From: Candidatus Deferrimicrobiaceae bacterium
GTDB lineage: Bacteria; Desulfobacterota; Deferrimicrobia; Deferrimicrobiales; Deferrimicrobiaceae
Assembly (NCBI GenBank): GCA_963792415.1
Contig: CAWBVY010000009.1
Span: 1-64,000, forward strand
Reading direction: 5' to 3'
Length of the DNA stretch: 64,000 nt
The position numbers and the translations under genes were made by a program. Positions 92 through 23,444 of the stretch are shown piece by piece (position 1 is the stretch's first letter; the number at the start of each line of letters is the position of its first letter). Under the pieces are notes generated by a model. That model saw nothing but the letters and a program-made list of their open reading frames with translations, did no database searches and was not told where the DNA came from.

Positions 92-166
92 TGGCGCGCC
101 TGGGAGGAATCGAACCTCCGCACCCGGCTCCGGAGGCCGGTGCTCTATCCCCTGAGCTACAGGCGC
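92..166 (-). tRNA. tRNA-Arg(CCG)
   Basis: GCGCCTGTAGCTCAGGGGATAGAGC, anticodon arm CCGGC-CTCCGGA-GCCGG, GGTTCGATTCC T-arm, CCA end. Confidence 0.95.
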
Positions 167-188
167 CCTTTCCTGATTTAAAAAAAAA

Positions 189-265
189 TGGGGTGAGTGA
201 CGGGGATTGAACCCGCGACCCCCAGGGCCACATCCTGGTGCTCTGCCAACTGAGCTACACTCACC
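189..265 (-). tRNA. tRNA-His(GTG)
   Basis: GGTGAGTGTAGCTCAGTTGGCAGAGC, anticodon arm CCAGG-ATGTGGC-CCTGG, GGTTCAATCC, CCA end, G-1 present. Confidence 0.95.
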
Positions 266-287
266 ACATGGCAAACGGCGAAAGAAG

Positions 288-316
288 ATTATACAAACCG
301 GGGTGTGGGGGGTCAA
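288..316 (-). promoter_or_regulatory. sigma70 promoter of the tRNA cluster
   Basis: Minus strand TTGACC-17 bp-TATAAT just upstream of tRNA-His. Confidence 0.8.
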
Positions 317-334
317 CGGGAATCGGGATCCCAG

Positions 335-395
335 AAAAGGGACGTTCCTAAGAACTTTCATCAACTCACGGAACGTTCAGGAACGTCCCCGTTTT
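335..395. repeat. REP-like inverted repeat (GGGACGTTCCT...AGGAACGTCCC) with a further half copy at 70-86
   Basis: AAAAGGGACGTTCCT at 335-349, AGGAACGTCCCCGTTTT at 379-395 and AGGAACGTCCCTGTTTT at 70-86. Confidence 0.55.
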
Positions 396-396
396 G

Positions 397-2983
397 CTAC
401 GGCCGGAAACGGCGCAGGCGGAGCGCGTTCGAGACGACGGTGACGGACGATAGCCCCATCGCCGCAGCGGCGAGAACGGGGGAAAGCAGAACCCGGAAAT
501 GCGGAAAGAGGACCCCCGCGGCCACCGGTATGAGCACCACGTTGTAGGCGAACGCCCAGAACAGGTTCTGGCGGATGTTCCGGAGGGTGGCACGGCTTAA
601 ACGAATGGCCGCCGCCACCCCCATCAGGTCCCCGCTCATCAGGACGATGTCGCCGGATTCGATCGCGATGTCCGTGCCCGTGCCGATCGCCATCCCGACG
701 TCTGCCTGGGCCAAGGCCGGGGCGTCGTTGATCCCGTCCCCCACCATCGCGACGACCTTCCCCTCGGCCTGGATCTTCCTCACTTCCTGCGCCTTCTGGT
801 CCGGCAGGACTTCCGCGCGCACCCGCTCGATCCCTGCCTGGGAGGCCACCGCCATCGCCGTCCCCGGGTTGTCCCCGGTCAGCATCACGACGTCGAGCCC
901 CATCCCGCGCAGGACCCCGATCGCCTCGGGAGCGCCCTCCTTCACCTTGTCGGCCACAGCCACCACCCCCGCGGCCTTTCCATCCACGGCGACGAAGATG
1001 ACCGTGGCTCCCGACTCCTGGAGCTCACGGGCAACGGATAGAAGCGTCGAACCGTCGATCCCCTCCTCCGTAAGCCACCTTGCGCTGCCCACGTGGACGC
1101 TCCGTCCCTCGACCGTGGCCCGGACCCCGTGGCCCGGCAGGGAGTGGAAATCCCCGGGAGACGAAAGGGCAAGTCCCTTCTCTTTCGCGCCACGGACCAC
1201 CGCGTCGGCCAGGGGGTGCTCCGACCCGGTCTCGGCGGAGGCTGCAAGCCGAAGCAGCTCCCGCCAGCCTTCCTCTTCCGGGAAGGGACCGCCCGGCGCG
1301 ACCCGGATACCGGTAACACTCGGGGCGTCCGAGGGTGATCGTCCCCGTCTTGTCGAGGACGACGGTGTCCACCTTGTGCGCCGTTTCCAGCGCGGCCCCG
1401 CTCCGGATCAGGATGCCAAGTTCCGCCCCCTTTCCCGTTCCCACCATGATCGACGTGGGCGTGGCAAGACCAAGCGCGCAGGGGCAGGCGATGATGAGAA
1501 CCGAGATTGCACTCAGCATGGCGTAGGTAAGCCGCGGCTCGGGTCCGAACGCAAACCAGGCGGCGAAGGTAGAAAGGGCCACGCCGATCACCGCGGGGAC
1601 GAACCAGGAAGCGATGACGTCCGCCAGGCGTCCGATCGGCGGTTTGCTCCCCTGCGCCTCCTGCACCATCCGGACGATCCGGGACAGGACCGTGTCCTTC
1701 CCCACGTGGGTGGCGCGCACGACGAGCCGGCCGTTGACGTTCATCGTCCCGCCCGTCACGACGTCGCCTTCTCCCTTGTCCTTGGGGATCGGCTCTCCCG
1801 TCATCATCGACTCGTCGACGGAGCTTGCCCCTTCCTCCACGGTCCCGTCCACCGGAACCTTCTCCCCCGGCCGGACGACGACCCGCTCCCCGGCCATCAC
1901 CTCCTCGAGGGGGATGTCAACCTCTCCACCGTCGCGGATTACCCGCGCCGACTTCGGCACAAGGCCGATCAGTTTTTTCACGGCTTCGGACGTCTTCCCC
2001 TTGGCCCGGGTCTCGAAATACCGCCCGAGGAGGACGAGGACGATGATGGCTGCGGACGTTTCGTAGTACACATGCGGAGCGGCCCCCGGAACGGCGAACA
2101 GCCCGGGGAAAAAGGTGGCGATGGCGCTGTAGCCGTAAGCAACCGTCGTTCCCAGCGCTACCAGCGTGTTCATGTCGGTCGTCCCGTGCTTCGCGGTGGC
2201 ATAGGCGCCGCGGTAGAACCGGGACCCGACGTAGAACTGGATCGGGGTCACCAGGACAAGTTGGAGAAGAGCGTTCGTAAACAAGGATAAGGGCATCCGC
2301 CCGGGACCGGCGACCATCTCCCAATGCGCGAGAAGAAACAGAGGGACCCCGAGGAACAATCCCACGCGAAGCCGGGAGAGCAGTGACCGCTCCTCCTCGC
2401 GCTGCATCCGCTCCTGCCGCGCAACCGGATCTTCCTCCGGCCTGATCTCCGGGATGGAATACCCCACTCCCTCGATCGCAACGCGCAACGCCCCCATGTC
2501 CGCCACCCCGGGAAGAAACTCCGCCGTCCCGGTCTGCGTTGCGAGGTTGACGCTCGCGGAGAGGACCCCGGGCACCGAGAGGAGTGCTTTTCCCACCCGG
2601 GCGACGCACGATGCGCACGTCATCCCCTCCACCGGAAACTCCGTCTTCTGCACGGGAACCTCGTATCCGGAGTCACGGATCGTGGAGACAAGGCTCGCCA
2701 TCCTGGTCTTTTCCGGATCCACCGTAACGGTCGCGGTCTTTGCGGCCAGGTTGACGGATGCGCCGGAAACACCTTCCACGCGGGAGAGGGCCTTTTCTAC
2801 CCGGGCGACGCAGGAGGCGCAACTCATTCCCTCCACCGGGAAGGTCCACCTCGCCTCTTTCCCGGGCATCCCTCCGGAAGGCGAAACGGACGTTTCCGGC
2901 GGCACGTGAAGAGCCGCGCAGTTGATCACCTTGTTATCGGTCATCACACCATAAGGATGAGGAAAATGCCTCGCCCGACTCAA
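397..2983 (-). CDS. copA: Cu+-translocating P1B-type ATPase, one frameshift near 1320; start codon uncertain (2983/2944/2869)
   Basis: Two GMxCASC metal-binding domains, TGEP, CPCALGL and DKTGT in ORF 1025..2983; TGDN, GDGIND, YN and MxxSS in ORF 397..1200. Confidence 0.92.
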
Positions 2984-3011
2984 TTTGGCCGGATTGGCCG
3001 CCGGGGTTTGC

Positions 3012-3020
3012 TGCTATAAT
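3012..3020 (+). promoter_or_regulatory. extended -10 promoter of tRNA-Arg(TCT)
   Basis: TGCTATAAT 13 bp upstream of the tRNA. Confidence 0.65.
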
Positions 3021-3033
3021 CCTATCACCTTGC

Positions 3034-3110
3034 GCGCCTGTAGCTCAGGTGGATAGAGCAGCTGCCTTCTAAGCAGCGGGTCCGAGGTTCGAGTCCTCGC
3101 AGGCGCGCCA
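3034..3110 (+). tRNA. tRNA-Arg(TCT)
   Basis: GCGCCTGTAGCTCAGGTGGATAGAGCA, anticodon arm GCTGC-CTTCTAA-GCAGC, GGTTCGAGTCC, CCA end. Confidence 0.96.
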
Positions 3111-3119
3111 GTTTCCTCT

Positions 3120-3420
3120 TTCGATTCAGCTTCTTGCAAATCGTTGCGTTCGGGCTCCCTCCCGGATTCAGCCTCTGTTTGCATATAGTTTGCATTCCGT
3201 CCGTCCGGATCGCCGAATACGTACCGCTCCAGAATGTTCGGTATCTCCCTCGTCGCTCCCGGAACGAGGTCGGCGTAGTACTTCGCCGTAGTCGCCACGT
3301 CCGGGTATCCGAACGCCTTCGAGACGTGGTAGATAGGGGCGCCCGCCGAGGCGAGGAGAGCTGCGAAGGTCCCCCGCAGGTCGTGTATACGGATCCGGCA
3401 AAGCCCTGCGGATTTCAGGG
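3120..3420 (-). pseudogene. C-terminal remnant of a tyrosine recombinase/integrase
   Basis: The frame of ORF 3014..3298 extends upstream as LKSAGLCRIRIHDLRGTFAALLASAGAPIYHVSKAFGYPDVATTAKYY (HxLR box II, LGH degraded to FGY, catalytic Tyr); no N-terminal part; abuts the tRNA 3' end. Confidence 0.8.
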
Positions 3421-3547
3421 AAGGTCGTGAGCCTTCCGGACTTTCGACTCGTCCACGGGACTCCCCGCTTCGTTAACGGAAACTGTCGCCGAAGAGATTC
3501 AAGAACTTTTGGAAAGATTGATCCGCACCCAACCGTATTGATAGGCA

Positions 3548-3698
3548 CTTAATTCGTAGTCAAGTGCTCTATCCGGCTGAGCTAAGGGCGCGTCCGTGAG
3601 GAAAGTCATTCTACGGCAAGGGGTTTCCCCCGTCAACCGCGTCCGGGAGAAACTCCCTTTCCACCCCGAAAATGGCGGTTGTTTGCGCGGGGTTTGCG
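3548..3698 (-). mobile_element. att-like module copy 1: 5' half tRNA-Arg(ACG) (3553-3591), promoter (3608-3636) and GTTTGCG pair (3681, 3692)
   Basis: Reverse complement GCGCCCTTAGCTCAGCCGGATAGAGCACTTGACTACGAATTAAG with no T-arm after it; TTGACG-17-TAGAAT upstream. Confidence 0.8.
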
Positions 3699-3808
3699 GT
3701 CCGTGCGGTCAGATGAGTCCGCACGACTTCGAACAGGCGTCGCTAACACCGGCCTAACGGATGTCTACGAAATAGGGGGAAGTCCACGGTCCTCCTCGCT
3801 GGTCTCTC

Positions 3809-5350
3809 TCATTTCACCAGTTCAAAATCACCGGGCATCCAGGTCTTGTCGAACCAGGCCTGCAGCGGACCGTAGAGGCGCAGCAGCACACTGTAGCTCT
3901 TCCCCGGCATGGTCTGGATCCAGTTGCCTTCATGTCCCTTGGGCGCTTTCGGACCAAACCACATGGTGTAGGAACCATCCGCATTCGCTTTCACCGAAGG
4001 GTTATTGCTGTCGAGCCCGCCCGTTTTCTGATCGGTTTCAAGTGCCGAACGAGTCTGCCCGTCATACACCATGAATGACCAGAAATCCTTGGCCGGGACC
4101 GGAGCGGGCAATGTGCATTTGTAGGTCTTGCCGCCGTCGAGATAACGGCCTTCCGAATCATGCACGCTCATTTCGTAGGCGGAACCCGTTCCAACCTTGG
4201 GCTTGGCCATGGCGGGGGTGATGGCGGTCGCGTAGTAGTGGAACATGATGCGGTCATCCAGCACCAGCTCGCCATTGTTCATGAATTCGTGGCTTCCCCC
4301 GGCAAAGGAGGAATACCACTGGCGTTTGCCCGGGTAGAAATAGGCTCTCTCATATCGAGGGCGGAACGTGATCGTGCGCGCCGTCGCATTGCCGATGGCC
4401 ACTCCCTCGGTGAGGATCTTTTTCATGCGGGCGTCTGGCGCAAAGGGCTTGCCCTTCTTGATGCCGATCGAGGCAAATTGGCCGACCAGTTCCGGATTGA
4501 AAGCGTTGGCGGGCTCATACTGCACCACCGCGTTCAATTCTTCATAGAAGGAGTAGTCGTTCGCATGGATGGTATTGATCTTCGCACCCGAAGCGTTGAC
4601 AACTTTCCCTTTTGGAGGATTCTTCATTTTCGAGAGCGGATAGATGCGGAATTGCGTTCTCAGGCCTTTGGTAGACGCTTCGATGTTGCCGTCCTTGACC
4701 AGCGCGCGCAAGAACATCCAGTTGCGGTAGGTAGGCGTCTTGACGACGCGATAACCGTCAGGAAGCTTTCCCTTATAGTCCGGACCGACAAAGACATACT
4801 TGCCGCCCTTGCCTTTATTCGGACCCGTCGCGCCTAAGTCGGTGACCCAGCGGAAGAACGCATCATCAACGGCCCCGAGGAGAGCCCCGGCGGGAACTTC
4901 CACGATGGCCGGCTCCGCCTTGACGTTGATCTCGGCAAACGCGTAGGGCGTGGTCGTTTGCGGGGTCAACAGCAAACTTCTGGCGTCATACAGATTCTCC
5001 CAAAGAACCAGGTCGCCCGGCTTTGCTCCCGCCTGCTTCAGCCCTTCCAGCATCGCATAGATGGACGCGGCGGGGATTCCGTTGAGGAAGGCATCAACGG
5101 CTCTGGACAGATCAATGAAGTCGCGGGTCTTCTTCACCGTTGCTTCACTGGGCATGCCGTCAAAGAAATCAAGTTCACCGAGCATTTCCGTCTGCACCTT
5201 GTCGGGTGTCATCAGGCCGGGGGGGACGTCGGCTTTGTATTTCGGCTCTGCAGCCGAGGCTGAACAATTGACTCCAAACAGCAGCGTGGCGGAGGCAAGC
5301 AACGCCATTGAAAAGGCGAGGACGTTCGTACATTTCTTCTTTGTGTTCAT
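3809..5350 (-). CDS. secreted DUF1254/DUF1214 domain protein
   Basis: 513 aa, signal peptide, TPDKVQT..G.L.FFDG.P, GKGGKY, FWSFMVYD, NWIQT.PG, LRLYGP motifs. Confidence 0.88.
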   Translation of the reverse strand: MNTKKKCTNVLAFSMALLASATLLFGVNCSASAAEPKYKADVPPGLMTPDKVQTEMLGELDFFDGMPSEATVKKTRDFIDLSRAVDAFLNGIPAASIYAMLEGLKQAGAKPGDLVLWENLYDARSLLLTPQTTTPYAFAEINVKAEPAIVEVPAGALLGAVDDAFFRWVTDLGATGPNKGKGGKYVFVGPDYKGKLPDGYRVVKTPTYRNWMFLRALVKDGNIEASTKGLRTQFRIYPLSKMKNPPKGKVVNASGAKINTIHANDYSFYEELNAVVQYEPANAFNPELVGQFASIGIKKGKPFAPDARMKKILTEGVAIGNATARTITFRPRYERAYFYPGKRQWYSSFAGGSHEFMNNGELVLDDRIMFHYYATAITPAMAKPKVGTGSAYEMSVHDSEGRYLDGGKTYKCTLPAPVPAKDFWSFMVYDGQTRSALETDQKTGGLDSNNPSVKANADGSYTMWFGPKAPKGHEGNWIQTMPGKSYSVLLRLYGPLQAWFDKTWMPGDFELVK

Positions 5351-5421
5351 ATTTGATTTCTCCTATATAAGCCAGGAAGTGAGGGAACGCGCTAAAGCGC
5401 TTTCGGTCACTGTGTTTACGT

Positions 5422-6939
5422 TTATTGAACCAGCTCGACGTCACCCGGCTTCCAGGTTTTGTCAAACCACGCCTGTTCTGGACCATACAGGCGCAGTATT
5501 ACGTTCCAACTCTTGCCGGGAACGGTCTGCACCCAGTTGGCTTCGTGACCCTTCGGCGCGGTCGGACCAAACCAGACATCCACCGATGTGTCGGCGTTGA
5601 TGACAACGCCTTTTTTCAGGCTGCTGATGCTCGGGAATTGCTGATCGGTTTGCAGCATCGAACGGGTCTGGCTGTCATACGCCACAAACGACCAGAAGTT
5701 CTTGGCCGGGATATTGGGCGGCAGGTGGATCTTGTAGGTCTTTCTTCCGTCAAGAGGCTTACCCTCGGAATCGGTGGTCGCCGCGGCGTATTGTGAGCCG
5801 ATCCCCACCATCTTCATCGCCATCGCCGGCGTGATTCCGGTAGCGTAGTAATGGAACAGGACACGGCCATCCAGGTTGCGAACCCCGGGTTGCGTCAGGA
5901 ACTCGTAGCTGCCTCCGGGGAAACTGGTGAACCATTTTCGATCCGGATAGTAATAGACCCCTTCCATGCGGGGCCGGAAGGTGATGGCTCGTGCAGTCGC
6001 ATTGCCCACCGCCACGGCCTCGGTGAGGATCTTCTTCATCCGGGCATCGGGAGCAAATTTCTTGCCCTTCTCGATACCGATGGCAGCTAGCAAACCGAGC
6101 GTTTCCGGGTTCAGCGCCTCATTCGGTTCATACTGGACGATCGCGTTCAATTCTTCATAGAAATGAAAGTCATTGGCGTGGATCGTATTGAGCTCCTTGC
6201 CGGAGACATTAATGAACTTCATCGGCGGCGGGTTCTTGGCCTCGGACAGCAGGTATACCTTGTGGAATTTCTTGGTGTTTTCCACGGCGGTTTTCGTGCC
6301 GCCGTTGTCCAGGAAGCCGCGCCAGAAGGACAGGTTGCCGTAGGTCGATGATCGCAGGACGATGTAGCCCTCCGGCACCTCGCCGCTGTAGCCGGGAGGC
6401 AGCAGCAGGTACTTGCCGCCCTTGCCCTTGTCCGGACCTGCGTTTCCAAAGTCTGCCACATACCTGAACCAGTGGTCATCGATGACGCCCAGAACGTTCG
6501 GCGCCGTTTCGATCACGAGCGGACCTTTGCTGGTGTCCAGCCACATCATGCTGTAGATGCTTTCGGTATTCGGCGTGAGATAGAGCGACTTCGAGTCCAT
6601 CAGGTTTTCCATGATGAGCACAGTCCGGTTGTTGTCCGCCCCCTGACTACCCCAACCGGTGCGGAGCGCTTCAGCCGAGGCGCCAGGCATGGCATTGAGA
6701 AAGGCCGCCACTCCGCGCATGAAGTCGAGATTTTCGTAAACCTTCTGCGTGGTGGAATCATCCGGGAACCCGTCGAAGAACTTCAATGTGCCGAGACGCG
6801 TCTCGACGCTGTCCGGCGTGGTGATGGCTTCGGGAATGTCCGTCGTCATCTTCATCTTCGGCGGTTCTGCGGCCCAAGCTGACGCGGTCAACCATGTAGC
6901 TATGCATACGGCCAATGTCGCCCTTATTGAGTTTTTCAT
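5422..6939 (-). CDS. secreted DUF1254/DUF1214 domain protein (paralog)
   Basis: 505 aa, signal peptide, TPDSVETRLGTLKFFDG, GPDKGKGGKY, FWSFVAYD, NWVQTVPG, LRLYGP. Confidence 0.88.
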   Translation of the reverse strand: MKNSIRATLAVCIATWLTASAWAAEPPKMKMTTDIPEAITTPDSVETRLGTLKFFDGFPDDSTTQKVYENLDFMRGVAAFLNAMPGASAEALRTGWGSQGADNNRTVLIMENLMDSKSLYLTPNTESIYSMMWLDTSKGPLVIETAPNVLGVIDDHWFRYVADFGNAGPDKGKGGKYLLLPPGYSGEVPEGYIVLRSSTYGNLSFWRGFLDNGGTKTAVENTKKFHKVYLLSEAKNPPPMKFINVSGKELNTIHANDFHFYEELNAIVQYEPNEALNPETLGLLAAIGIEKGKKFAPDARMKKILTEAVAVGNATARAITFRPRMEGVYYYPDRKWFTSFPGGSYEFLTQPGVRNLDGRVLFHYYATGITPAMAMKMVGIGSQYAAATTDSEGKPLDGRKTYKIHLPPNIPAKNFWSFVAYDSQTRSMLQTDQQFPSISSLKKGVVINADTSVDVWFGPTAPKGHEANWVQTVPGKSWNVILRLYGPEQAWFDKTWKPGDVELVQ

Positions 6940-7110
6940 TCCCGTCTCCTTTCAGGGATGTGTTCTTCTCATTTTTCAGCGGATATGCAAACCATATCTT
7001 CTGCCTCCCCCTTTCAGGAACAGGGGGCGCAAAAAACTTTGGGATGATTTTGGTGGCAATTGGATGGATAGGACGCCTAAAGGATTCAACTTGATCAATA
7101 ACCTGATCCC

Positions 7111-7418
7111 GCGAAACCCCCTTTTCACCCCGAAAACGGCCGCTGTTTGCGCCGGGTTTGCGTCCTGCTGTCACTTCCAGTCATCAACCGGCACTTCCTG
7201 TCCACTTGGAGGAGGGCCTAACCGGCTGAAAACGCTGGAACGACGCGGGGATACACGGACAACGCAAAGCAGTTCGTAGTCAAGTGCTCTATCCAGCTGA
7301 GCTAAGGGCGCGTCCGTGAGGAAAGGTATTCTACGGCAAGGGGTTTCCCGCGTCAACCGCGACCGGGAGAAACCCCCCTTTCACCCCGAAAATGCGAGTT
7401 GTCTGCACGCGGTTTGCA
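7111..7418 (-). mobile_element. att-like module copy 2: GTTTGCG pair (7145, 7156), 5' half tRNA-Arg(ACG) (7273-7311), promoter (7328-7356), GT(C/T)TGCA pair (7401, 7412)
   Basis: Near-identical to copies 1 and 3; tRNA similarity stops exactly after the anticodon loop CTACGAA. Confidence 0.82.
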
Positions 7419-7569
7419 ATTCAAGTCAACTGAATTTCCTTCTCTTTCAGGAACGCGGCGAATACCTGATCCACAACCCGGATGTGGTCTTTCAACCAGT
7501 TGCCCAAAAAAGTGCCGAAGGATTCGCTGTTTTTATTTTTTCGGTAATTCCATCTTCCTTGAAATCCTC

Positions 7570-7690
7570 GACCTCACCGGGTACGGGGCGGAGAAGTCGC
7601 TCAGCGTCGACAACATCTTCGTGATCGCGATGATCTTCGGCTTCTTCGCCGTGCCTGCGGTCTACCAGCACCGGGTTCTGTTCTGGATGA
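7570..7690 (+). pseudogene. internal fragment of a TerC/Alx-family gene
   Basis: LTGYGAEKSLSVDNIFVIAMIFGFFAVPAVYQHRVLFW matches the SLSVDN..QHRVLFWG segment of the intact TerC at 22380. Confidence 0.75.
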
Positions 7691-7746
7691 TTGCCATGTT
7701 CCGCTACCTGTTCCGTACCTCTTGAAGCGATGTCCGTGAAAAGACG

Positions 7747-9561
7747 TTACAGCTCTTCCACCCAGGTGTGGCGGCCCTTCAGCACGTCCATGGCGACTTC
7801 GTACATCTTCCGGTCGTCGTTGATCCAGAGCTCGCGCAGGTATCCATCGACCCGGCGGCGGGACCGGCGGCAGAACAGGTCGGCGAGCACGACCGCTTCC
7901 CGATGGTTGGTATGGGCGTCATACACCATGCGATGGGCGCGTGCGACCACCGCGGTGATGGCGAAGAGCTCCAGTCCCGCCTTGACGATACGGCGCAGAA
8001 ACGCCTGCTTCTTGGCGAGTTTCGCCTGGTGGAGGAGCATCCCGTGGAATATGGCCCGGGCCAGGCGCCGCGACGTCCGGTCGGCGTACCGCAGGTGGGT
8101 GGCCAGTTCCTTGAACTCCGCGTACTTCGGCCAGCGCCCCCACCCGATGTACCGGGAGGGGTACCAGGCCGCGTAAAACGAGACGATCTTCGGCAGCGCC
8201 TTTATCTTGCCGCGCGCGGAAACCTTTGGATCGATGAGGTCCCTTGCCACCTGGAAATGCCGGTCCACGGCCTCCCGGGCGATGAACAGGTGCATGATCT
8301 CGGTGGACCCTTCGAAGATCCGGTTGATCCGGCTGTCCCGAAAGGCCCGCTCGACGCCGATGGGTTTCTCCCCGCGGGCCGCCAGGGAGATTTCGGTCTC
8401 ATACCCCCGGCCGCCCCGGATCTGCATGGCGTCGTCCACCAGGTCCCATCCTCCTTCGGAGCCGAACTCCTTGGCCGCCGCGGCCTCCAGCCGGATATCG
8501 TAATCTTGACGGGTCGACAACCGGCTGGCGAGGTCGGTGACGGCTTCCATGGCAAAGGTCATGCTCGCCATCTGCGCCAGCTTCTGGGCGATCGCTTCGT
8601 GCTTCCCGACGGGGTGCCCCCACTGCACCCGCTCGCCGGACCAGACCCTGCAGATTTCCAGCAGCCGTTTGGACGCGCCGACGACGCCCGCAGGCAGGGC
8701 GAGCCGCCCGGTGTTGAGCGTCACCAATGCGATCTTCAGCCCCTCGCCCTCTTTTCCGATGAGGTTCTCCTTCGGGACCTTCACGTCCCGGAAACCCAGT
8801 ACGGCGTTTCCGATGGCGCGCAGTCCCATGAACCGGCACCGGTGGTCTACGTGCACCCCGGGCGAATCCATTTCCACGATGACGGCACTGATATCGTCAT
8901 TGACCGGATTCCGGGCCATGACGACGATGATCTCTGCCAGGGTGCCGTTCGTGCACCACAACTTCGTACCGTTCAGCAGATAATGGTCCCCCTTGTCCTC
9001 GAGCGTTGCGCTCAGGCGGCCCGGGTCCGATCCGACGTCCGATTCGGTCAGGGCGAAGGCGCTGATGGCCCCCGCCGCAAGGCGCGGGAGGTACTTTTTC
9101 CGCTGCGCTTCCGTACCGAAGACCTTGAGGGGCTGGGGGACTCCGATCGACTGATGGGCGCTCAGCAGCGCGGTGATGTTCCCGCAGGTCGAGGCCAGCA
9201 GTTTCATCACATTATCGTACTCGGACTGGCTGAGGCCGAGACCGCCGTACTCGATCGGTATCTTCATGCCGAACGCGCCCAGCTTCCGCAATCCTTCGAT
9301 AACGCGTTCCGGATACTCCCCGGTGGCATCGATCGCGACGGGATCGACTTCGCGCAGGAGGAACTCCTTCATCTTGTTATAAAACTCGGTATACTCTTCC
9401 CGTTCTTTAAGCTCTGGATACGGATGGACCAGGTCGAGCCGGTAGTTCCCCAGGAACAGTTCCTTTAGAAAACCTGGGGCCCGGACATCTTTCTGCCGGG
9501 AAGCCTCGGCGATTTCCATGGCCTTTTCTTCACTTATGTCGCGATGCGTATGTTCCCCCAT
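7747..9561 (-). CDS. acyl-CoA dehydrogenase (long, ACAD9/VLCAD-like)
   Basis: 604 aa; SAHQSIG, FALTE..GSD, NGTKLWCTNG, QIRGGRGY, RINRIFEGSTEI. Confidence 0.92.
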   Translation of the reverse strand: MGEHTHRDISEEKAMEIAEASRQKDVRAPGFLKELFLGNYRLDLVHPYPELKEREEYTEFYNKMKEFLLREVDPVAIDATGEYPERVIEGLRKLGAFGMKIPIEYGGLGLSQSEYDNVMKLLASTCGNITALLSAHQSIGVPQPLKVFGTEAQRKKYLPRLAAGAISAFALTESDVGSDPGRLSATLEDKGDHYLLNGTKLWCTNGTLAEIIVVMARNPVNDDISAVIVEMDSPGVHVDHRCRFMGLRAIGNAVLGFRDVKVPKENLIGKEGEGLKIALVTLNTGRLALPAGVVGASKRLLEICRVWSGERVQWGHPVGKHEAIAQKLAQMASMTFAMEAVTDLASRLSTRQDYDIRLEAAAAKEFGSEGGWDLVDDAMQIRGGRGYETEISLAARGEKPIGVERAFRDSRINRIFEGSTEIMHLFIAREAVDRHFQVARDLIDPKVSARGKIKALPKIVSFYAAWYPSRYIGWGRWPKYAEFKELATHLRYADRTSRRLARAIFHGMLLHQAKLAKKQAFLRRIVKAGLELFAITAVVARAHRMVYDAHTNHREAVVLADLFCRRSRRRVDGYLRELWINDDRKMYEVAMDVLKGRHTWVEEL

Positions 9562-9703
9562 GCGTAAGCACCTCCATAAATGAATAGTTATTCATTTTAC
9601 CACGACAGTCATCGGGCCGATCCAACCGCATTGGATGGCTGGATTGGGGGGCCTCCGCGCGGAAACGGGGCATCCTTAGCGGCATTGCGAGCATCCTTTA
9701 TTT

Positions 9704-10282
9704 ATGTGGAAACGGACGGCATTCCTGGCGCTTGTCCTGCCAATGATTGGAACGCCACCGGCGGCGGATGAGGCTTTGTGGAACCTTCTCAAGGCGGGCG
9801 GGCAGGTGGTGGTCATCCGCCACGCGTCGACTGAACCCGGGACCGGAGACCCGCCCGGGTTCCACCTGGACGATTGCGCCACACAACGGAACCTGTCCGC
9901 GGAGGGCCGGGAGGAGGCGAAGCGAATCGGCGCGGCGTTTCGCGAGCGCGGCGTGCCGGTCGGAAGGGTCCTTTCCAGCCAATGGTGCCGGTGCCTGGAA
10001 ACGGCGCGGCGGGCGTTCGGAACCGCGGAGGCCTGGGCTCCGCTGAATTCATTCTTCGACGACCGCGCCCGGGGGCCGGATCAGACGCGGCAGGTCCGGC
10101 TTCTCGCCGGCGGGCGGCCACCCTCGGGAAATCTCATCCTCGTGACCCATCAGGTGAACATTACGGCCCTGACCGGGATCTTTCCCGGTCAGGGGGAGAT
10201 GGTCATCCTGACGCCTTCGGACAACGGGGAATTGGTTGTCGCCGGCCGCCTTCGGCCGGCCGTGTCCCGTACCTCCCGGTAG
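9704..10282 (+). CDS. histidine phosphatase family protein (secreted)
   Basis: VIRHAS catalytic motif, QRNLS.EG, SSQWCRCLETA, LVTH. Confidence 0.85.
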   Translation: MWKRTAFLALVLPMIGTPPAADEALWNLLKAGGQVVVIRHASTEPGTGDPPGFHLDDCATQRNLSAEGREEAKRIGAAFRERGVPVGRVLSSQWCRCLETARRAFGTAEAWAPLNSFFDDRARGPDQTRQVRLLAGGRPPSGNLILVTHQVNITALTGIFPGQGEMVILTPSDNGELVVAGRLRPAVSRTSR

Positions 10283-10334
10283 GCAGGCGGCGGTCGGCAA
10301 TCGCCCTGGCAACCGGAAACCGTTTCCTCTCCGA

Positions 10335-10420
10335 ATCCGGACCGGGTGTCTCAGCACCCGGGACATCTCCTCCACGACCTGCCCCATCGTCAGCCGGTCC
10401 CCGGCGGTCCAACGGCAAGG
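10335..10420 (-). pseudogene. possible NmrA-family gene fragment
   Basis: AGDRLTMGQVVEEMSRVLRHPVR resembles the NmrA C-terminal AGDELT...SRVLGRPVRY segment. Confidence 0.35.
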
Positions 10421-10567
10421 AGAGTGAGTAGGATCCCGTGCCTGCTCGCGCAGGAAGATTTACGCGCCGAGAACGCCCGCAATTCCCGGATTCCCGAGAC
10501 CCGGTCGGGGCGGAAACCCGTCGGAATATATGGAATCCAAGGGAATGAGAATATCTTCGTCAGGGAA

Positions 10568-11182
10568 ATGGGGGTGAGTCCTATCGTGCGACACGGGACG
10601 GCGCGGGTATTTCTGGCATCCCTGGCCTTGGGCTTGGCAGTGTACTTTTTTCCGGCCGTCGCCGGAAATGCCTCCGGCGGCGCGAGGGTCGTGGAAGGGG
10701 TGGCCTTCCCGGAGATTTATGAAGGGATGGGCGTCTCCCTTCACCTCCGGAACGCTGCCCTTCTTCGGTACAAGATCTTCTTCCGCGGGTACGTCGTCGG
10801 GCTCTATCTCCCCGAGGGCGCGAACTCCGACTCCGCGCTCGGGGAGGTTCCCAAGCGGCTGGAATTTCAATATTTCTGGGATATCCCCGGTCAGGCGTTC
10901 GGCAAGACAGGTGAAGAGATCCTCGCCCGAAATGTCGATGCGGGGACCCTTTCCTCGCTTCGGGACCGCCTCGAACGGATCCGGCGGGCCTACCGGGACG
11001 TAAAGGCCGGCGACCGGTATGCCCTCACGTATCGCCCCGGATCGGGAACCGAGCTCTCCTTCAACGGCACGCCCCTGGTGGTCGTCGAGGGTGACGATTT
11101 CGCCGCCGCCTATTTCTCCATCTGGCTGGGGCGGCATCCGATCGACGAGAAACTGAAAGAGGATCTCCTTCGGAAAGGGTAG
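10568..11182 (+). CDS. chalcone-isomerase-like periplasmic protein
   Basis: VEGVAFPE, LRYKIFFRGYVVGLY, VKAGDRYALTY.PG.GT, FAAAYFSIWLG..P. Confidence 0.8.
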   Translation: MGVSPIVRHGTARVFLASLALGLAVYFFPAVAGNASGGARVVEGVAFPEIYEGMGVSLHLRNAALLRYKIFFRGYVVGLYLPEGANSDSALGEVPKRLEFQYFWDIPGQAFGKTGEEILARNVDAGTLSSLRDRLERIRRAYRDVKAGDRYALTYRPGSGTELSFNGTPLVVVEGDDFAAAYFSIWLGRHPIDEKLKEDLLRKG

Positions 11183-11775
11183 TGAACCGCGTGAAACCGT
11201 TGATTGCCGCCGCGGCAGGGTGGACCCTGGGGATGCTGGTCACGGCTTGCGGGCCGTCATTGCCGCCCCTGGAGACCGTTCCGCGAGTCGATATCCCCCG
11301 CTTCATGGGGGACTGGTACGTGATCGCCAACATCCCGACGTGGATCGAGGAGGGGGCGCACAACGCCGTCGAGTCGTACCGACTGGACGCGGACGGGACG
11401 ATCGTGACGACGTTCACCTTCCGCAAGGGAGGGTTTGACGGCCCCGTGAAAACGTACAACCCCAGGGGCTTCGTCCTCGATCCCGCTTCCAATGCCACGT
11501 GGGGAATGCAATTCCTGTGGCCGTTCAAGGCCGAGTACCTGATCATCTACCTCAACGAGGATTACACCCAGACCGTCATCGGGCGGAGCAAGCGCGACTA
11601 CGTCTGGATCATGGCCCGGACCCCCGATATGGGGGAGGTGGACTACCGGCGGATCACGGACTGGCTGGGCACCCTTGGCTACGACACCGGCCGGCTCCGC
11701 CGGATCCCGCAGCGCTGGCCGGATTCACCGAAAGACCCGGCCTCGGGGCCGTTGGAAAGGGCGCCAGGAAACTGA
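11182..11775 (+). CDS. blc: outer-membrane lipocalin (Blc family lipoprotein)
   Basis: Lipobox VTAC; VDIPRFMGDWYVIA, QFLWPFKAEY, YVWIMARTP. Confidence 0.85.
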   Translation: MNRVKPLIAAAAGWTLGMLVTACGPSLPPLETVPRVDIPRFMGDWYVIANIPTWIEEGAHNAVESYRLDADGTIVTTFTFRKGGFDGPVKTYNPRGFVLDPASNATWGMQFLWPFKAEYLIIYLNEDYTQTVIGRSKRDYVWIMARTPDMGEVDYRRITDWLGTLGYDTGRLRRIPQRWPDSPKDPASGPLERAPGN

Positions 11776-11849
11776 CCGCCGGCGCAAGCGAGAAGGGCCC
11801 GGAGCGGGTGGAGAACGGTCGAATGCAATTTCATCATGCCCGCGGGGGG

Positions 11850-11990
11850 ATCGGGAAAACCGGAGAGCTTCGATCCATGCTTTCCCGGGATCGGCGAATT
11901 CCGGTCCCGCCGTTCCTTTCCGCCCAGTACAACCCTCCGTGGACGATCCCGCCGTTCCGACGCAATGAAATCATCGTCCGGATCCGATGA
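11850..11990 (+). pseudogene. C-terminal fragment of a SOUL haem-binding protein
   Basis: AQYNPPWTIPPFRRNEIIVRIR-stop is the typical SOUL C-terminal motif; no N-terminal part. Confidence 0.65.
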
Positions 11991-12094
11991 GAGCCTCCGG
12001 TGGAGAAATGATTCGAAGCGCATTCGGGGAAGTCTAGAATTCCCTCGTCTTGCAGTCATCGTATGGAGTAATGGTGAGGGGGCTACGGAAAGTT

Positions 12095-12368
12095 GTTTGC
12101 GCCGGGTTTGCGTTCTGCTGTCATCTCCTGCCCTAATCTGTCACTTCCTGTCCACTTTGAGGAAGGCCTAACCGGCTGAAAACGCTGGAATGACGGGGAA
12201 ATAGACGAGCAGCGCAAAGCAGTTCGTAGTCAAGTGCTCTATCCAGCCGAGCTAAGGGCGCGTCCGTGAGAAAAGTCATTCTACGGCAAGGGGTTTCCCG
12301 CGTCAACCGACTCAGCGGGAAACCCCCCTTTCACACCCAGAATGGCGGCAGTTTGCGCGGGGGTTGCG
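12095..12368 (-). mobile_element. att-like module copy 3: GTTTGCG pair (12095, 12106), 5' half tRNA-Arg(ACG) (12223-12261), promoter (12278-12306), pair (12351, 12362)
   Basis: Colinear with copy 2 over about 270 bp. Confidence 0.82.
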
Positions 12369-12391
12369 TTTCGTTCGAACTTTCCCCCGAT

Positions 12392-13096
12392 CTATTTCGC
12401 TTTCCTGAGCTCTTCTCTCAAACGGTCCGCCCCCTTGTTGCCGACCGATTGCTTTACGACGATGTCCACGGGAGTGACTTCCTTGCCGTAATATTCCTTG
12501 TTGAGGCTCTCCCGCACGTCAATGTACGATCCCTCGAGATTCATCCCGGCGTAGAGCCCCTTCGACTTGGAAAACGAAAGAAAATCGGTGGTGACATCCG
12601 ACTTCGCCCCGCCGCCCACAGGCCCGAGGGCGACCGAGGCGTCTCCGCCCAGTTTGATTTTCGAGGTGAGCAGCGAGTCCACCCCCTTCTGGCTCATCAC
12701 CAGCAGGACGACTTCCGCCGATTCCCCGCCGATCTGCAACCCGAAGGTCACCGAGCCCATCGTGTAGAAAGCGGGGTTGCTCCACTCTCCGGTCTTGCCG
12801 TCCCTCAACAGGAGGACACCGGTCCCGCCAGACCCCCCCCAGATGAATCCCGCCTTGAGCACCTGCGGATAGATCAACACGCCCTTCGCGTCCTTGATGT
12901 GATCGCGCATCCATTTGTAATTATCATCCCGCAGGAATCCGCCGAAGGTGACGCGCGCATTGTCGACGATCCCCTGCGCGTCCTCCTTGTTCGCCGCCAT
13001 CCCTCCTGTCGCCGAGGCAACGAGGAACATTGACGCCACGATGGTTACGAACGCGAATCCCCGAATTCTACCTTTACCTGTCCGTCTCTCTTCCAT
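12392..13096 (-). CDS. Ysc84/SYLF lipid-binding domain protein
   Basis: AKGVLIYPQVLKAGFIWGGSGGTGVL, WSNPAF, GLQIG, SKSKGLYAG. Confidence 0.85.
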   Translation of the reverse strand: MEERRTGKGRIRGFAFVTIVASMFLVASATGGMAANKEDAQGIVDNARVTFGGFLRDDNYKWMRDHIKDAKGVLIYPQVLKAGFIWGGSGGTGVLLLRDGKTGEWSNPAFYTMGSVTFGLQIGGESAEVVLLVMSQKGVDSLLTSKIKLGGDASVALGPVGGGAKSDVTTDFLSFSKSKGLYAGMNLEGSYIDVRESLNKEYYGKEVTPVDIVVKQSVGNKGADRLREELRKAK

Positions 13097-21401: not shown

Positions 21402-21463
21402 GCCCGCCGGACGGATCTCCGGGTCGGGCCGTCGAGTTCTGCGCGGGGTTCCCCACCACCCCC

Positions 21464-22340: not shown

Positions 22341-22379
22341 ACAATACTTATGCCAAATATGATGCGGGGAGGTGGCATC

Positions 22380-23444
22380 ATGCAGATCCTGGCGTTGTGG
22401 GGATTCTTCGCGGGACTGGTGCTGGGGACGCTCTTCGTCGACCTCCTCAAGTTCAACAAGAACCCCCACGTGATGTCTCTTCGGGAAGCTTCCGTGTGGT
22501 GCGGCATCTGGGTCTCCCTGGCCGCGTCGTTCGGAGCCGCCATTTTCTACCTCGAGGGGTCGGTCAAGGGGCTGGAGTTCGTCACGGGCTACATCATCGA
22601 GTGGTCCCTGAGCGTGGACAACCTCTTCGTGTTCATCGTGATCTTCCGCTACTTCGCCGTCCCGCCGGCCTTTCAGCACCGGGTGCTCTTCTGGGGGATC
22701 ATGGGAGCCATCGTCCTGCGGGGCATCTTCATCGCCGCCGGCGTCGGCCTGCTGACGTATTTCCACTGGACGATCTACCTCTTCGGGGCCTTCCTGGTCT
22801 ACACGGGAGTAAAGCTCCTGCGCGCGGGAGAGGTGGAGGTCGAGCCGCAGAAAAACCCGGTTCTCCGATTTTTCAAACGCCTCATGCCGATCGAAACCGG
22901 TTATGACAAGCAGAGCTTCTTCGTGCGGCGGAATGATCGCCTGGTCGGGACCGCCCTCCTTCCGGTCCTGATCGTCATCGAGACGACCGACGTCATGTTC
23001 GCCGTGGACTCGGTGCCCGCCATCCTCGCCATCACCCGCGACCCCTTCATCGTGTACACGTCCAACATCTTCGCCATCCTCGGCCTCCGCGCCTTGTACT
23101 TCCTGCTCGCGGGGGTCATGGGAATGTTCCGGTACCTCAAGGTCGGGCTCTGCTTCGTCCTCACGTTCGTGGGGATCAAGATGCTGATCTCCGACTTCTA
23201 CAAGATCCCGATCACGGTGTCGCTCGGTGTCGTGGCGGGAATCCTGGCGGCCTCGATCGTGGTATCCCTGCTCCTACCCGCCAAGGAGGAAGTGGCGTCC
23301 GGTGACGCCGGCGAGGCGCCTGCGCAACCTCAACTTGCGGAAGAGTTCGCCCCTCAGGAAAACGACCTCGCCATCGCGGCCGGGAAACGTCAGCGTGGGC
23401 ACCAGGAAACCAAGGAAGAGGAGAAGGAATACGAACGGGTGTAG
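22380..23444 (+). CDS. TerC/Alx family membrane protein
   Basis: EWSLSVDNLFVF, QHRVLFWGI, ETTDVMFAVDSVPA, SNIFAILGLRALYF. Confidence 0.92.
   Translation: MQILALWGFFAGLVLGTLFVDLLKFNKNPHVMSLREASVWCGIWVSLAASFGAAIFYLEGSVKGLEFVTGYIIEWSLSVDNLFVFIVIFRYFAVPPAFQHRVLFWGIMGAIVLRGIFIAAGVGLLTYFHWTIYLFGAFLVYTGVKLLRAGEVEVEPQKNPVLRFFKRLMPIETGYDKQSFFVRRNDRLVGTALLPVLIVIETTDVMFAVDSVPAILAITRDPFIVYTSNIFAILGLRALYFLLAGVMGMFRYLKVGLCFVLTFVGIKMLISDFYKIPITVSLGVVAGILAASIVVSLLLPAKEEVASGDAGEAPAQPQLAEEFAPQENDLAIAAGKRQRGHQETKEEEKEYERV

Follow-up and report, generated by a model that had tools for sequence, protein, structure and literature searches.

The stretch analyzed here, referred to as the window, comprises the first 64,000 nucleotides of one contig of a Candidatus Deferrimicrobiaceae genome (C9:1–64000 of genome G000, which has 11 contigs and is rated 100% complete and 0.32% contaminated). 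Genomes of relatives carry similar labels (G002, G008, G012, G021, G053 and others), and loci are numbered with the prefix L. Positions 3544–12383 of the window probably represent a tandem stack of two integrase-less islands, similar to cis-mobilizable elements (CIMEs), that arose by site-specific recombination at a gene for tRNA-Arg(ACG) and whose end-gene has since been truncated. Three modules, each combining an upstream element (U), a promoter and the 5′ half of tRNA-Arg(ACG), delimit two cargo blocks that contain no integrase. In two of the modules, the half-tRNA is followed by a 129-nt arm (D) through a junction that is invariant in every copy that could be assessed. A motif with the form GCAAAC-N5-GCAAAC (R) is found in both U and D. 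Arrays of the same kind, with cargo that varies between relatives, are spread across the family. The junctions are presumably the work of a tyrosine recombinase that acted in trans, and some of them may still be active.

In the mechanism proposed here, one end of an incoming element would carry a copy of the U element, promoter and 5′ half of the tRNA gene, and the other end would carry the D arm. Integration would join the promoter and 5′ half of the element to the resident 3′ half, thereby preserving expression of the tRNA. Their resident counterparts would be displaced upstream and fused to D. Repeated rounds of integration would leave attP-like junctions (U–promoter–half-tRNA–D, 284 nt) between blocks and one whole tRNA gene downstream. 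The end-gene in the window, which we designate copy 1, would later have been shortened by a deletion reaching into an integrase gene, and the working tRNA-Arg(ACG) would be the one found at a second such locus on contig C7.

Module anatomy and cargo in the window

The window contains three direct repeats on the minus strand that belong to a 155-nt family (3553–3707, 7273–7427 and 12223–12377) and match the reference copy at 86% identity. The similarity between copies 2 and 3 extends further, giving a 279-nt pair (7144–7422 and 12094–12372) with 84% identity. The full modules span 3553–3710 (copy 1), 7144–7428 (copy 2) and 12094–12383 (copy 3). Read 5′ to 3′ on the minus strand, each module begins with U and continues with the promoter TTGACG-17-TAGAAT, a further 16 nt and the first 39 nt of tRNA-Arg(ACG). 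The half-tRNA sequence, GCGCCCTTAGCTC(A/G)GC(C/T)GGATAGAGCACTTGACTACGAA, equals positions 1–39 of the intact tRNA-Arg(ACG) that ARAGORN identifies at G000:C7:4750–4826. Similarity to the tRNA stops directly after the anticodon loop CTACGAA in copies 2 and 3. In copy 1, it continues past the loop via TTAAGTG(CC), the 3′ strand of the anticodon stem.

Copy 3 is composed of an upstream part (12262–12383), which was delineated by an nhmmer match to U[4–125], the R motif (12351–12367) and a promoter scan (promoter at 12278–12306); the tRNA 5′ half (12223–12261; positions 1–39), which ends in the loop CTACGAA; and a D arm (12094–12222) that holds TTCCAGCGTTTTCAGCCGGTTAGGCC, two GACAGGAAGTGAC-like direct repeats and a terminal R (12095–12111). 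The upstream part of copy 2 (7312–7428; R at 7401–7417, promoter at 7328–7356) is likewise followed by the 5′ half (7273–7311) and a D arm (7144–7272; R at 7145–7161). This arm runs into a second, partial U element (U[14–74], 7107–7167), and the two together occupy 7107–7272. Copy 1 consists of an upstream part (3592–3710; R at 3681–3697, promoter at 3608–3636) and a truncated tRNA-Arg(ACG) (3544–3591) that lacks the T arm and the 3′ strand of the acceptor and is called by neither ARAGORN nor Rfam. The R motifs lie ~150 nt upstream and ~112 nt downstream of the anticodon loop, a spacing that we take to approximate the proportions of a lambda-type attP with its arm sites. When positions 3000–13000 were scanned for promoters, the best sites were exactly the three module promoters, each of which matches the consensus at 10 of 12 positions. 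The number of promoter-like sites in this interval was 4, versus 2.9 ± 1.8 in shuffled sequences; promoter hexamers alone do not exceed chance, but the 155–279-nt repeats do.

ARAGORN and Rfam identified tRNA-Arg(CCG), tRNA-His and tRNA-Arg(TCT) as the only tRNAs in the 64-kb window, which is devoid of an intact tRNA-Arg(ACG); the Rfam scan of the window returned no family other than tRNA. The intact tRNA-Arg(TCT) (3034–3110, plus strand) is convergent with the array and marks its low-coordinate boundary. Between this gene and copy 1 lies the C-terminal remnant of a tyrosine integrase (3260–3440, minus strand; …IHDLRGTFA…YYADL… in the frame translation), of which the N-terminal two thirds are missing. 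The remnant comprises the last ~60–70 residues of the protein, is located just downstream of copy 1 on the same strand in another frame, and faces the 3′ end of tRNA-Arg(TCT). It accounts for the only PF00589 match on contig C9 (3272–3415, 28 bits), which falls outside both cargo blocks. This arrangement suggests that copy 1 was formerly the whole end-gene of the array and was truncated by a deletion that removed most of the adjacent integrase.

The lower block contains two DUF1254/DUF1214 genes (3809–5350 and 5422–6939, together 3809–6939, minus strand). The upper block contains a gene for an ACAD9-type acyl-CoA dehydrogenase (7747–9561, minus strand) followed on the plus strand (9704–11775) by genes for a histidine phosphatase (9704–10282), a chalcone-isomerase-like protein (10346–11182) and a lipocalin (11182–11775), all assigned by Pfam. 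The blocks are 3.4–4.7 kb in size and lack an integrase; three items of cargo have the same orientation as the repeats and four the opposite one. Among species-representative genomes, the best relatives of the acyl-CoA dehydrogenase are ~50% identical and belong to other phyla. A DUF1254/DUF1214 gene that is 71% identical to that of the window follows the intact tRNA-Arg(ACG) on C7. Comparison of the window with its own genome by BLAST revealed a 95% identical copy of the lipocalin region at G000:C9:116035–116725, as well as a 116-nt fragment of a TerC gene (7571–7686, plus strand) that is 95% identical to C9:134902–135017, part of the TerC gene in a tRNA-Arg(TCG) array. The TerC fragment is situated in the spacer before copy 2 and represents the scar of an earlier rearrangement.

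Much of what the initial annotation had described in this region stands. The repeat search, the sequence itself and the ARAGORN match bear out its three same-orientation modules of promoter and tRNA 5′ half, and the tRNA similarity of copies 2 and 3 does end after CTACGAA. Its statement that the window holds neither an intact tRNA-Arg(ACG) nor an intact integrase agrees with the tRNA scans and with the PF00589 remnant as the sole match. Pfam returned the same cargo that it had named (the DUF1254 pair in one block; acyl-CoA dehydrogenase, phosphatase, chalcone-isomerase-like protein and lipocalin in the other), and scans with Pfam and PF00589 of the window and of the arrays of relatives confirm that the blocks are integrase-less. 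The description of the module was correct as far as it went but omitted the D arm, the R motif at both ends of the module, the extension of copy 1 into the anticodon stem and the integrase remnant beside copy 1.

The initial annotation had also raised the prospect that the copies are misassembled repeats of one locus. In that case, a single promoter–tRNA locus would have been mis-joined three times in a metagenome-assembled genome. Contigs of G000 do break at such repeats, and contig C7 starts inside a D arm. However, the three copies differ from one another by 10–16% and have different flanks, the same architecture is present in many independent assemblies that include a closed genome, and the genome is rated 100% complete with 0.32% contamination. 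The chance that the array is an assembly artefact is negligible.

Several other features of the window were noted. The lipocalin duplication (window 11161–12000 and C9:116035–117333) involves copies that are 104 kb apart and is followed by a 147-nt stretch with 87% identity; it represents either a recent duplication or the capture of a resident gene. An 891-nt segment (22379–23269) is 98% identical to G000:C6:615568–616458 and includes parts with similarity (72–75%) to the TerC gene found in the tRNA-Arg(TCG) array. Beyond the low-coordinate boundary of the array, a copper-type P-type ATPase (397–2983, minus strand) is divided between two overlapping frames, indicating a frameshift or a pseudogene. 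One open reading frame (ORF; 1025–2983) encodes two HMA domains and the E1-E2 ATPase domain, and the other (397–1200) encodes the hydrolase domain. A paralogue that is 72.5% identical to the split ATPase is encoded at C7:217833–220088. The set formed by tRNA-Arg(CCG), tRNA-His and tRNA-Arg(TCT), together with the intervening ATPase, is present twice in G000, at the start of C9 (window 92–3110) and at the end of C7 (217640–224884). The two regions are 72–88% identical and, because the contamination of G000 is rated at 0.32%, look like a true paralogous pair.

The half-tRNA–D junction and arrays across the family

A 26-nt D pattern was found in 3 species genomes and at 31 metagenome loci; 40 D arms are available when G000 and its relatives are included, and these provide 27 distinct complete D sequences (24 from the scanned loci and 3 from G000). 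One of the 40 copies is cut by a contig end, which leaves 39 that can be assessed. In all 39, D is joined directly after the anticodon loop of a tRNA-Arg 5′ half, with the loop ending 31–33 nt before the D pattern. The left partner is a TCG half in 25 copies and an ACG-type half in 14 (10 exact, 1 variant and 3 with a degraded 5′ part). Moreover, the same variant of the D start (CTGCTTTGCG…) is found behind both ACG and TCG halves. Had attL sites been formed at two different target genes, they would show just this pattern of a constant boundary with two kinds of left partner. The recurrence of D in 40 copies and its invariant join thus support the earlier proposal that the modules are att-like.

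The D arm is conserved as DNA rather than as an RNA structure. None of the 32 pairs predicted in a consensus fold of 22 copies shows covariation (covariation term +0.09), and single folds of U and D on either strand are no better than those of shuffled sequences (z from −0.4 to −1.0). The possibility that half-tRNA plus D constitutes a structured RNA, such as a tRNA-like leader, a split tRNA or an intron, was rejected on these grounds.

The junction also bears on an explanation that dispenses with site-specific recombination. According to this explanation, the promoter region of tRNA-Arg was copied by unequal crossing-over or segmental duplication and subsequently gave RecA a region of homology through which blocks could be exchanged, for instance with DNA taken up from relatives. 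Such a process would fit repeats that are 50–280 nt long and 77–90% identical, the failure to find a recombinase, the presence of a DUF1254 gene after both the intact tRNA on C7 and copy 2, and the array of G002:C6, in which a tRNA-Arg unit with an internal deletion is duplicated along with downstream genes. It cannot explain a one-base junction in 39 of 39 D copies with two left partners, a sharp left edge of U ~20 nt before R, or unrelated compact blocks that each lie between repeats, and we consider it highly improbable.

Site-specific integration at tRNA-Arg makes a prediction for the downstream end of each array, and two further loci of G000 are relevant in this regard. The intact tRNA-Arg(ACG) sought since the initial annotation is located on C7 (4750–4826), where it closes a unit similar to those of the window; it is the only such gene in G000, and its upstream region has the same U element together with a similar promoter. 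Contig C7 opens within a D arm (C7:5–122), which is followed by a 4.5-kb block (TetR, O-methyltransferase and adenylate cyclase) and then by U, promoter and the whole tRNA. A second array, based on tRNA-Arg(TCG), is found at the far end of C9. It includes a partial U (C9:139963–140029), a U–promoter–half(TCG)–D module (C9:136078–136368), a half-tRNA fused to the 3′ end of a foreign tRNA (C9:132213–132251) and an intact tRNA-Arg(TCG) (C9:130598–130674). A whole tRNA at the downstream end of both arrays is expected if incoming elements bring a promoter and 5′ half. The fused half-tRNA (L039) is a chimeric tRNA scar in which the promoter and the first 33–34 nt of tRNA-Arg(TCG) are joined, after a further ~30 nt, to the T arm and acceptor end of a tRNA-Leu-like sequence (…GGTTCGAGTCCTCCCTTCGACACCA). 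Metagenome locus L229 is 99.5% identical to C9:138157–138777, yet its neighbours differ; it has a full-length acyl-CoA dehydrogenase gene where G000 has a truncated gene, a difference that points to change at the level of strains.

To survey relatives, we used the constant left part of U, that is, R preceded by CCGCACGGAC, and allowed up to 2 mismatches. This pattern occurs in 39 of the 61 genomes of the class, including 37 of 53 in the family of the window and 1 of 7 in a sister family (on small contigs); the reversed control had 0 matches anywhere. Copies of U in the Candidatus Deferrimicrobiaceae relatives cluster in same-strand arrays in which they are 1–5 kb apart. The arrays contain as many as 15 repeats (G002:C6), with 12 before the tRNA in G021:C4 and 12 in G012:C3; G075:C1, G066:C135 and the closed genome G053 have arrays as well. 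Seven of the 11 arrays or array pieces outside the window are closed downstream by an intact tRNA-Arg that has this U-promoter (G000:C7, G000:C9 at 130–140 kb, G002:C6, G002:C1, G021:C4, G012:C3 and G008:C5). In G002:C6, the tRNA-Arg unit is duplicated with an internal deletion, as are the genes downstream.

The intervals between repeats hold one to four genes that are compact and very mixed. They encode GGDEF/cyclase proteins, proteases, rubrerythrin, cytochromes c, dehydrogenases, lipocalins, RelB/YafQ and HigB pairs, and a methylase with Vsr. Crude ORF picks in five arrays, based on GC content at third codon positions, placed 57 of 92 cargo ORFs on the same strand as the repeats and 35 on the opposite strand. 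The content of the arrays is not conserved. G012 and G021 share a locus, as judged from a left flank with a sigma-54 activator that is 91% identical, and the contents of their arrays mostly differ. Cassettes common to G002, G012 and G021 (88–97% identical) appear in different orders, and one is duplicated within G002. The cargo of the window is largely missing at the DNA level from 27 genomes of the genus, among the best 10 candidates per genome. A search for DNA synteny on the right flank matched only the Ysc84 gene; the species are too diverged. The comparison of cargo content and order that the initial annotation had suggested therefore reveals cassettes that are reordered between species rather than a fixed gene set.

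Two observations concern other repeats in these arrays. In genus g17 (L251–L253), U continues with a different conserved tail (…TGCAGTTGGAGAGGTTTCAGGGGGGCAGGTCA) instead of the −10 box and tRNA leader, and the family thus has at least two repeat types. In addition, a 2.2-kb unit with three ORFs that lack Pfam matches and with a tRNA-Val(TAC) 3′ fragment at its end is present at four places with 87–92% identity (G002:C1:264844–267011, G002:C6:305195–307374, G002:C3:7335–9512 and G021:C3:32223–33989). One copy is at a true tRNA-Val gene and one is inside a tRNA-Arg array.

Candidate recombinases and crossover sites

In G002, G021, G012, G008 and G031, every PF00589 match lies outside the arrays. 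None of the 83 array ORFs of G002 and G021 matched this family, nor did any of 73 ORFs within 2 kb of D-type modules (95 were predicted, and 22 from six near-duplicate loci were excluded). The genus shares three chromosomal tyrosine recombinases. In G000, genes for such enzymes are located around C6:365801 (519 aa), around C1:167786 (348 aa), at C6:355753–356775 (340 aa) and around C6:568239. A 340-aa integrase (G000:C6:355753–356775; L044) is encoded just upstream of tRNA-Met, beside ORF6N and ribbon-helix-helix genes and ~10 kb from a gene for a 519-aa recombinase. Its position is syntenic in many genomes of the genus, and it looks fixed, perhaps domesticated. We found no support for this integrase as the trans-acting enzyme: the query did not detect it in 6 of 20 genomes of the genus, its gene is broken in G021, and there is no U or D nearby in six other genomes.

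Other candidates fared no better. Serine recombinases (PF00239) were not detected in G000, G002, G021 or G012. The best match to IntI (TIGR02249) in G000 scored 83 bits against a cut-off of 265 and is on another contig. The cut-off was exceeded only in G008, where a true integron integrase (G008:C112:3261–4192) scored 346 bits and falls into two adjacent matches. When 216 array ORFs were clustered, no protein family common to the arrays emerged that might represent a hidden recombinase, and the U and D patterns had 0 matches in a viral contig collection, which provides no indication of a free phage form. The integrase remnant beside copy 1 (3272–3415), considered as a lead to the cognate integrase, yielded only distant, mostly broken relatives.

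These searches are pertinent to a different view of the arrays as an active capture platform of integron-like character. Single cassettes would be inserted and excised at U/R sites by a recombinase whose gene lies elsewhere on the chromosome, and the displaced tRNA promoters would express the captured genes. The arrays of 12–15 same-strand repeats with 1–4 tightly packed genes between them have this appearance, and their toxin-antitoxin pairs and very mixed accessory genes resemble the cargo of chromosomal integrons. Cassettes are shared between species at 94–97% identity, the repeat is confined to one family (37 of 53 genomes, with 0 matches for the reversed control), and the modules of the window contain three promoters that match 10 of 12 consensus positions. 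On the other hand, no recombinase has a presence pattern or position tied to the arrays, IntI exceeds its cut-off only in G008, and G000, G002, G021 and G012 contain no resolvase. No more than 57 of 92 cargo ORFs share the orientation of the repeats, the repeats lack an attC-like fold, and many of them are truncated or decayed, as expected of relics. We therefore regard this view as unlikely. It is nonetheless tempting to speculate that Deferrimicrobiaceae carry an undescribed gene-capture system, an independently evolved analogue of integrons in which a host recombinase acting in trans inserts compact cassettes before tRNA-Arg genes at sites composed of U, promoter and 5′ half. This is a tentative possibility and, at present, an improbable one; were it true, each insertion would leave a strong tRNA promoter before the next cassette while keeping the tRNA alive.

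The structure of U raises the question of where crossover takes place. The left edge of U is sharp, ~20 nt before R, and its right extent varies; what all U repeats have in common is R with its left flank. The 3′ half of tRNA-Leu(GAG) comes after R in 8 places. At three of the loci (L229, L236 and L242), the R of a D arm is followed by a Leu 3′ half that is identical to the T arm and acceptor of the true gene and then by sequence that is 82% identical to the true downstream flank of tRNA-Leu(GAG). R may thus denote the P arm of elements whose crossover takes place in the tRNA-Leu(GAG) anticodon loop, and the U before tRNA-Arg genes may be an old site of the tRNA-Leu type. R is not an obligatory part of the tRNA promoter, because three intact tRNA-Arg(ACG) genes of relatives (L006, L010 and L014) have no R upstream. 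Two crossovers are candidates: one in the anticodon loop, at the boundary of half-tRNA and D, and one a few bases after the R that ends D or begins U. The modules of the window are att-type separators under either; the borders of the blocks would shift by 129 nt.

An alternative built on the second crossover places strand exchange a few bases after R and takes the separators for att sites of elements that target the tRNA-Leu(GAG) anticodon loop. The promoter, Arg half and D would be a long inherited P arm, and the boundary of half-tRNA and D would be a single fossil event copied by descent. This alternative draws on the constancy of R and its left flank as opposed to the variable right side, on the 8 places with a Leu 3′ half, and on the D-arm fusions at L229, L236 and L242. 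A resemblance, judged by eye, between the stretch of U after R (CGCCATTTTCGGGGTGAAAAGGGG) and CGCCATCTTGAGGGGGTGGTGGGG of tRNA-Leu(GAG) points the same way, as do four Leu 3′ fragments after tRNA-Leu(GAG) on G000:C1. However, R accompanies only 1 of those 4 fragments, no examined array starts at a tRNA-Leu gene, and D never occurs without an Arg half in front of it (39 of 39). The Arg halves carry both anticodons, as they would in attL sites formed at two target genes. On balance, we find an origin at tRNA-Leu(GAG) quite unlikely.

Additional traces of tRNA-Leu(GAG) are present in G000. The four fragments on C1 (300400–304996; L041) are same-strand copies of the 3′ half, 0.7–1.6 kb apart, downstream of tRNA-Leu(GAG). 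They form a classical 3′-side tandem of tiny islands, with R in 1 of the 4 Leu fragments. A fragment in the window (21440–21463, minus strand; CTTTGAGGGGGTGGTGGGGAA) matches the anticodon-loop and variable-arm region of tRNA-Leu(GAG) and may be an att scar. Alignment by eye of U (for instance, window 7369–7417) with tRNA-Leu(GAG) (C1:304912–304996) suggests that the stretch after R resembles the anticodon arm, T arm and acceptor. The −35/−10 region of the tRNA-Arg promoter is perhaps likewise tRNA-Leu-like, again by eye, and the promoter region might descend from a decayed tRNA-Leu fragment.

Stacking of integrase-less islands at tRNA-Arg, which we favor, has to be set against a number of observations that weigh against it. 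First, no recombinase is linked to the arrays by position or presence pattern. The tRNA-Met integrase is found in 14 of 20 genomes of the genus with the query used and is broken in G021 despite the large array of that genome; in 6 other genomes, neither U nor D occurs near it. Arrays are also present in the closed genome G053, where PF00589 matches just two genes, probably the Xer pair, and the relatives of the remnant beside copy 1 are distant, mostly broken and at most 49% identical. Second, the loops of the ACG and TCG genes are mismatched at 2 of 7 positions, which would hinder use of both by a single tyrosine integrase were the loop to serve as the overlap region. The mixing of ACG and TCG halves could also come from gene conversion with resident tRNA genes. 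Third, 3 of the 11 other arrays (G066:C135, G053 and G075:C1) are without an intact terminal tRNA-Arg, and 1 reaches the end of its contig. In relatives, half-tRNA–D modules make up a minority of the separators; the majority are U repeats that vary in extent, some of them joined to tRNA-Leu(GAG) 3′ halves, which indicates that more than one kind of event built the arrays. Finally, the assembled sequences revealed no circles, empty sites or pairs of strains that differ by exactly one block.

Taken together, the interpretation in the initial annotation is partly supported: the modules behave as att-type junctions, the blocks are integrase-less, their cargo varies between relatives, and an intact tRNA with the same promoter closes such arrays elsewhere. 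Mobilization in trans, which it had proposed, is at this point a hypothesis, as no cognate recombinase could be tied to the arrays, and the integron likeness is overstated for reasons considered below.

Comparison with known systems

The arrays resemble integrons and super-integrons in having short repeats in the same orientation, compact unrelated genes that include toxin-antitoxin pairs, and content that varies between relatives. Clusters of attC sites that lack an integrase are known as CALINs. Unlike the repeats of integrons, those described here are derived from a tRNA gene and its promoter. A classical integron was rejected given the IntI score in G000 (83 versus 265 bits), the absence of an attC-like fold and the orientation of the ORFs (57 same, 35 opposite). 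The term "integron-like" that had been applied to the window is, by the same measures, an overstatement: G000 has no IntI, the repeats do not fold like attC and the genes are not co-oriented.

Integrative mobile elements exploiting Xer (IMEX elements) and the pdif modules of Acinetobacter plasmids have no recombinase of their own and are thought to be moved by host recombinases at short sites; pdif modules alternate in orientation. The blocks described here are similar to these Xer-dependent modules in that they carry cargo without a recombinase of their own. Unlike pdif, all of the repeats are direct, and no 28-bp dif-like inverted pair was seen in U or D by eye, no formal search having been made.

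If stacking at tRNA-Arg is correct, the arrays are hot spots at which a poorly studied family of bacteria from soil and groundwater accumulates small integrase-less accessory blocks, which include redox enzymes, toxin-antitoxin pairs, restriction-modification genes and transporters. A rare 5′-side mode of integration at tRNA genes would be extended to arrays of a dozen or more units, and a promoter-bearing tRNA half could be a conserved, portable junction. The 284-nt module offers a concrete substrate for work on the mobility of cassettes in trans through host recombinases. For annotation, the modules carry a warning: a half-tRNA pseudogene that retains a perfect promoter may cause nearby cargo to be transcribed.

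Among the papers listed for this bacterial group, judged by titles and the beginnings of abstracts, none concerns mobile elements. Searches on tandem islands at tRNA genes, the anticodon loop and promoters found no description of such arrays, as judged mostly from the listings.

Islands that displace a 5′ fragment of their target gene are catalogued in Islander, where they are rare and number 159 of 3919 (PMC4383910). The same database lists 2083 islands with an anticodon-centred site and notes that tandem arrays exist, of which only 4 consist of three or more (PMC4383910). The arrays described here share with these 5′-fragment islands the tandem arrangement and a displaced piece of the tRNA gene that lies upstream of the whole gene and has its orientation; a crossover centred on the anticodon loop would be a further likeness and is one of the two candidates here. 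A whole tRNA gene with a displaced 5′ fragment upstream in the same orientation is present at G000:C7, at 130–140 kb of C9, and in G002, G021, G012 and G008; in the window itself, the end-gene is truncated. Islander islands are defined by their own integrase (PMC4383910), whereas the two blocks of the window are 3.4–4.7 kb without an integrase inside either and arrays of relatives reach 12–15 separators. The displaced piece also differs in that it includes ~115 nt of upstream element plus the promoter, and the whole module is family-wide.

CIMEs have kept attL and attR but lost the genes for integration and transfer, and the accretion of elements in tandem by successive integrations has been described for streptococcal integrative and conjugative elements (ICEs) (PMC5704250). 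Our findings agree with this account in that modules flank each block of the window, Pfam identifies only metabolic genes and genes of unknown function rather than ones for integration or transfer, and the blocks are stacked in tandem at a target gene. The CIMEs described there lie at the 3′ end of their target beside a functional ICE or integrative and mobilizable element capable of moving them (PMC5704250), whereas no functional partner was found in G000. The blocks described here are also far smaller than CIMEs, and it is the 5′ side, with its promoter, that is duplicated. The window therefore fits a combination of 5′-fragment islands with CIME accretion. What is new is that combination: restoration of the target gene from the 5′ side together with its promoter, very small integrase-less blocks, a conserved 284-nt composite junction, and arrays of a dozen units throughout the family.

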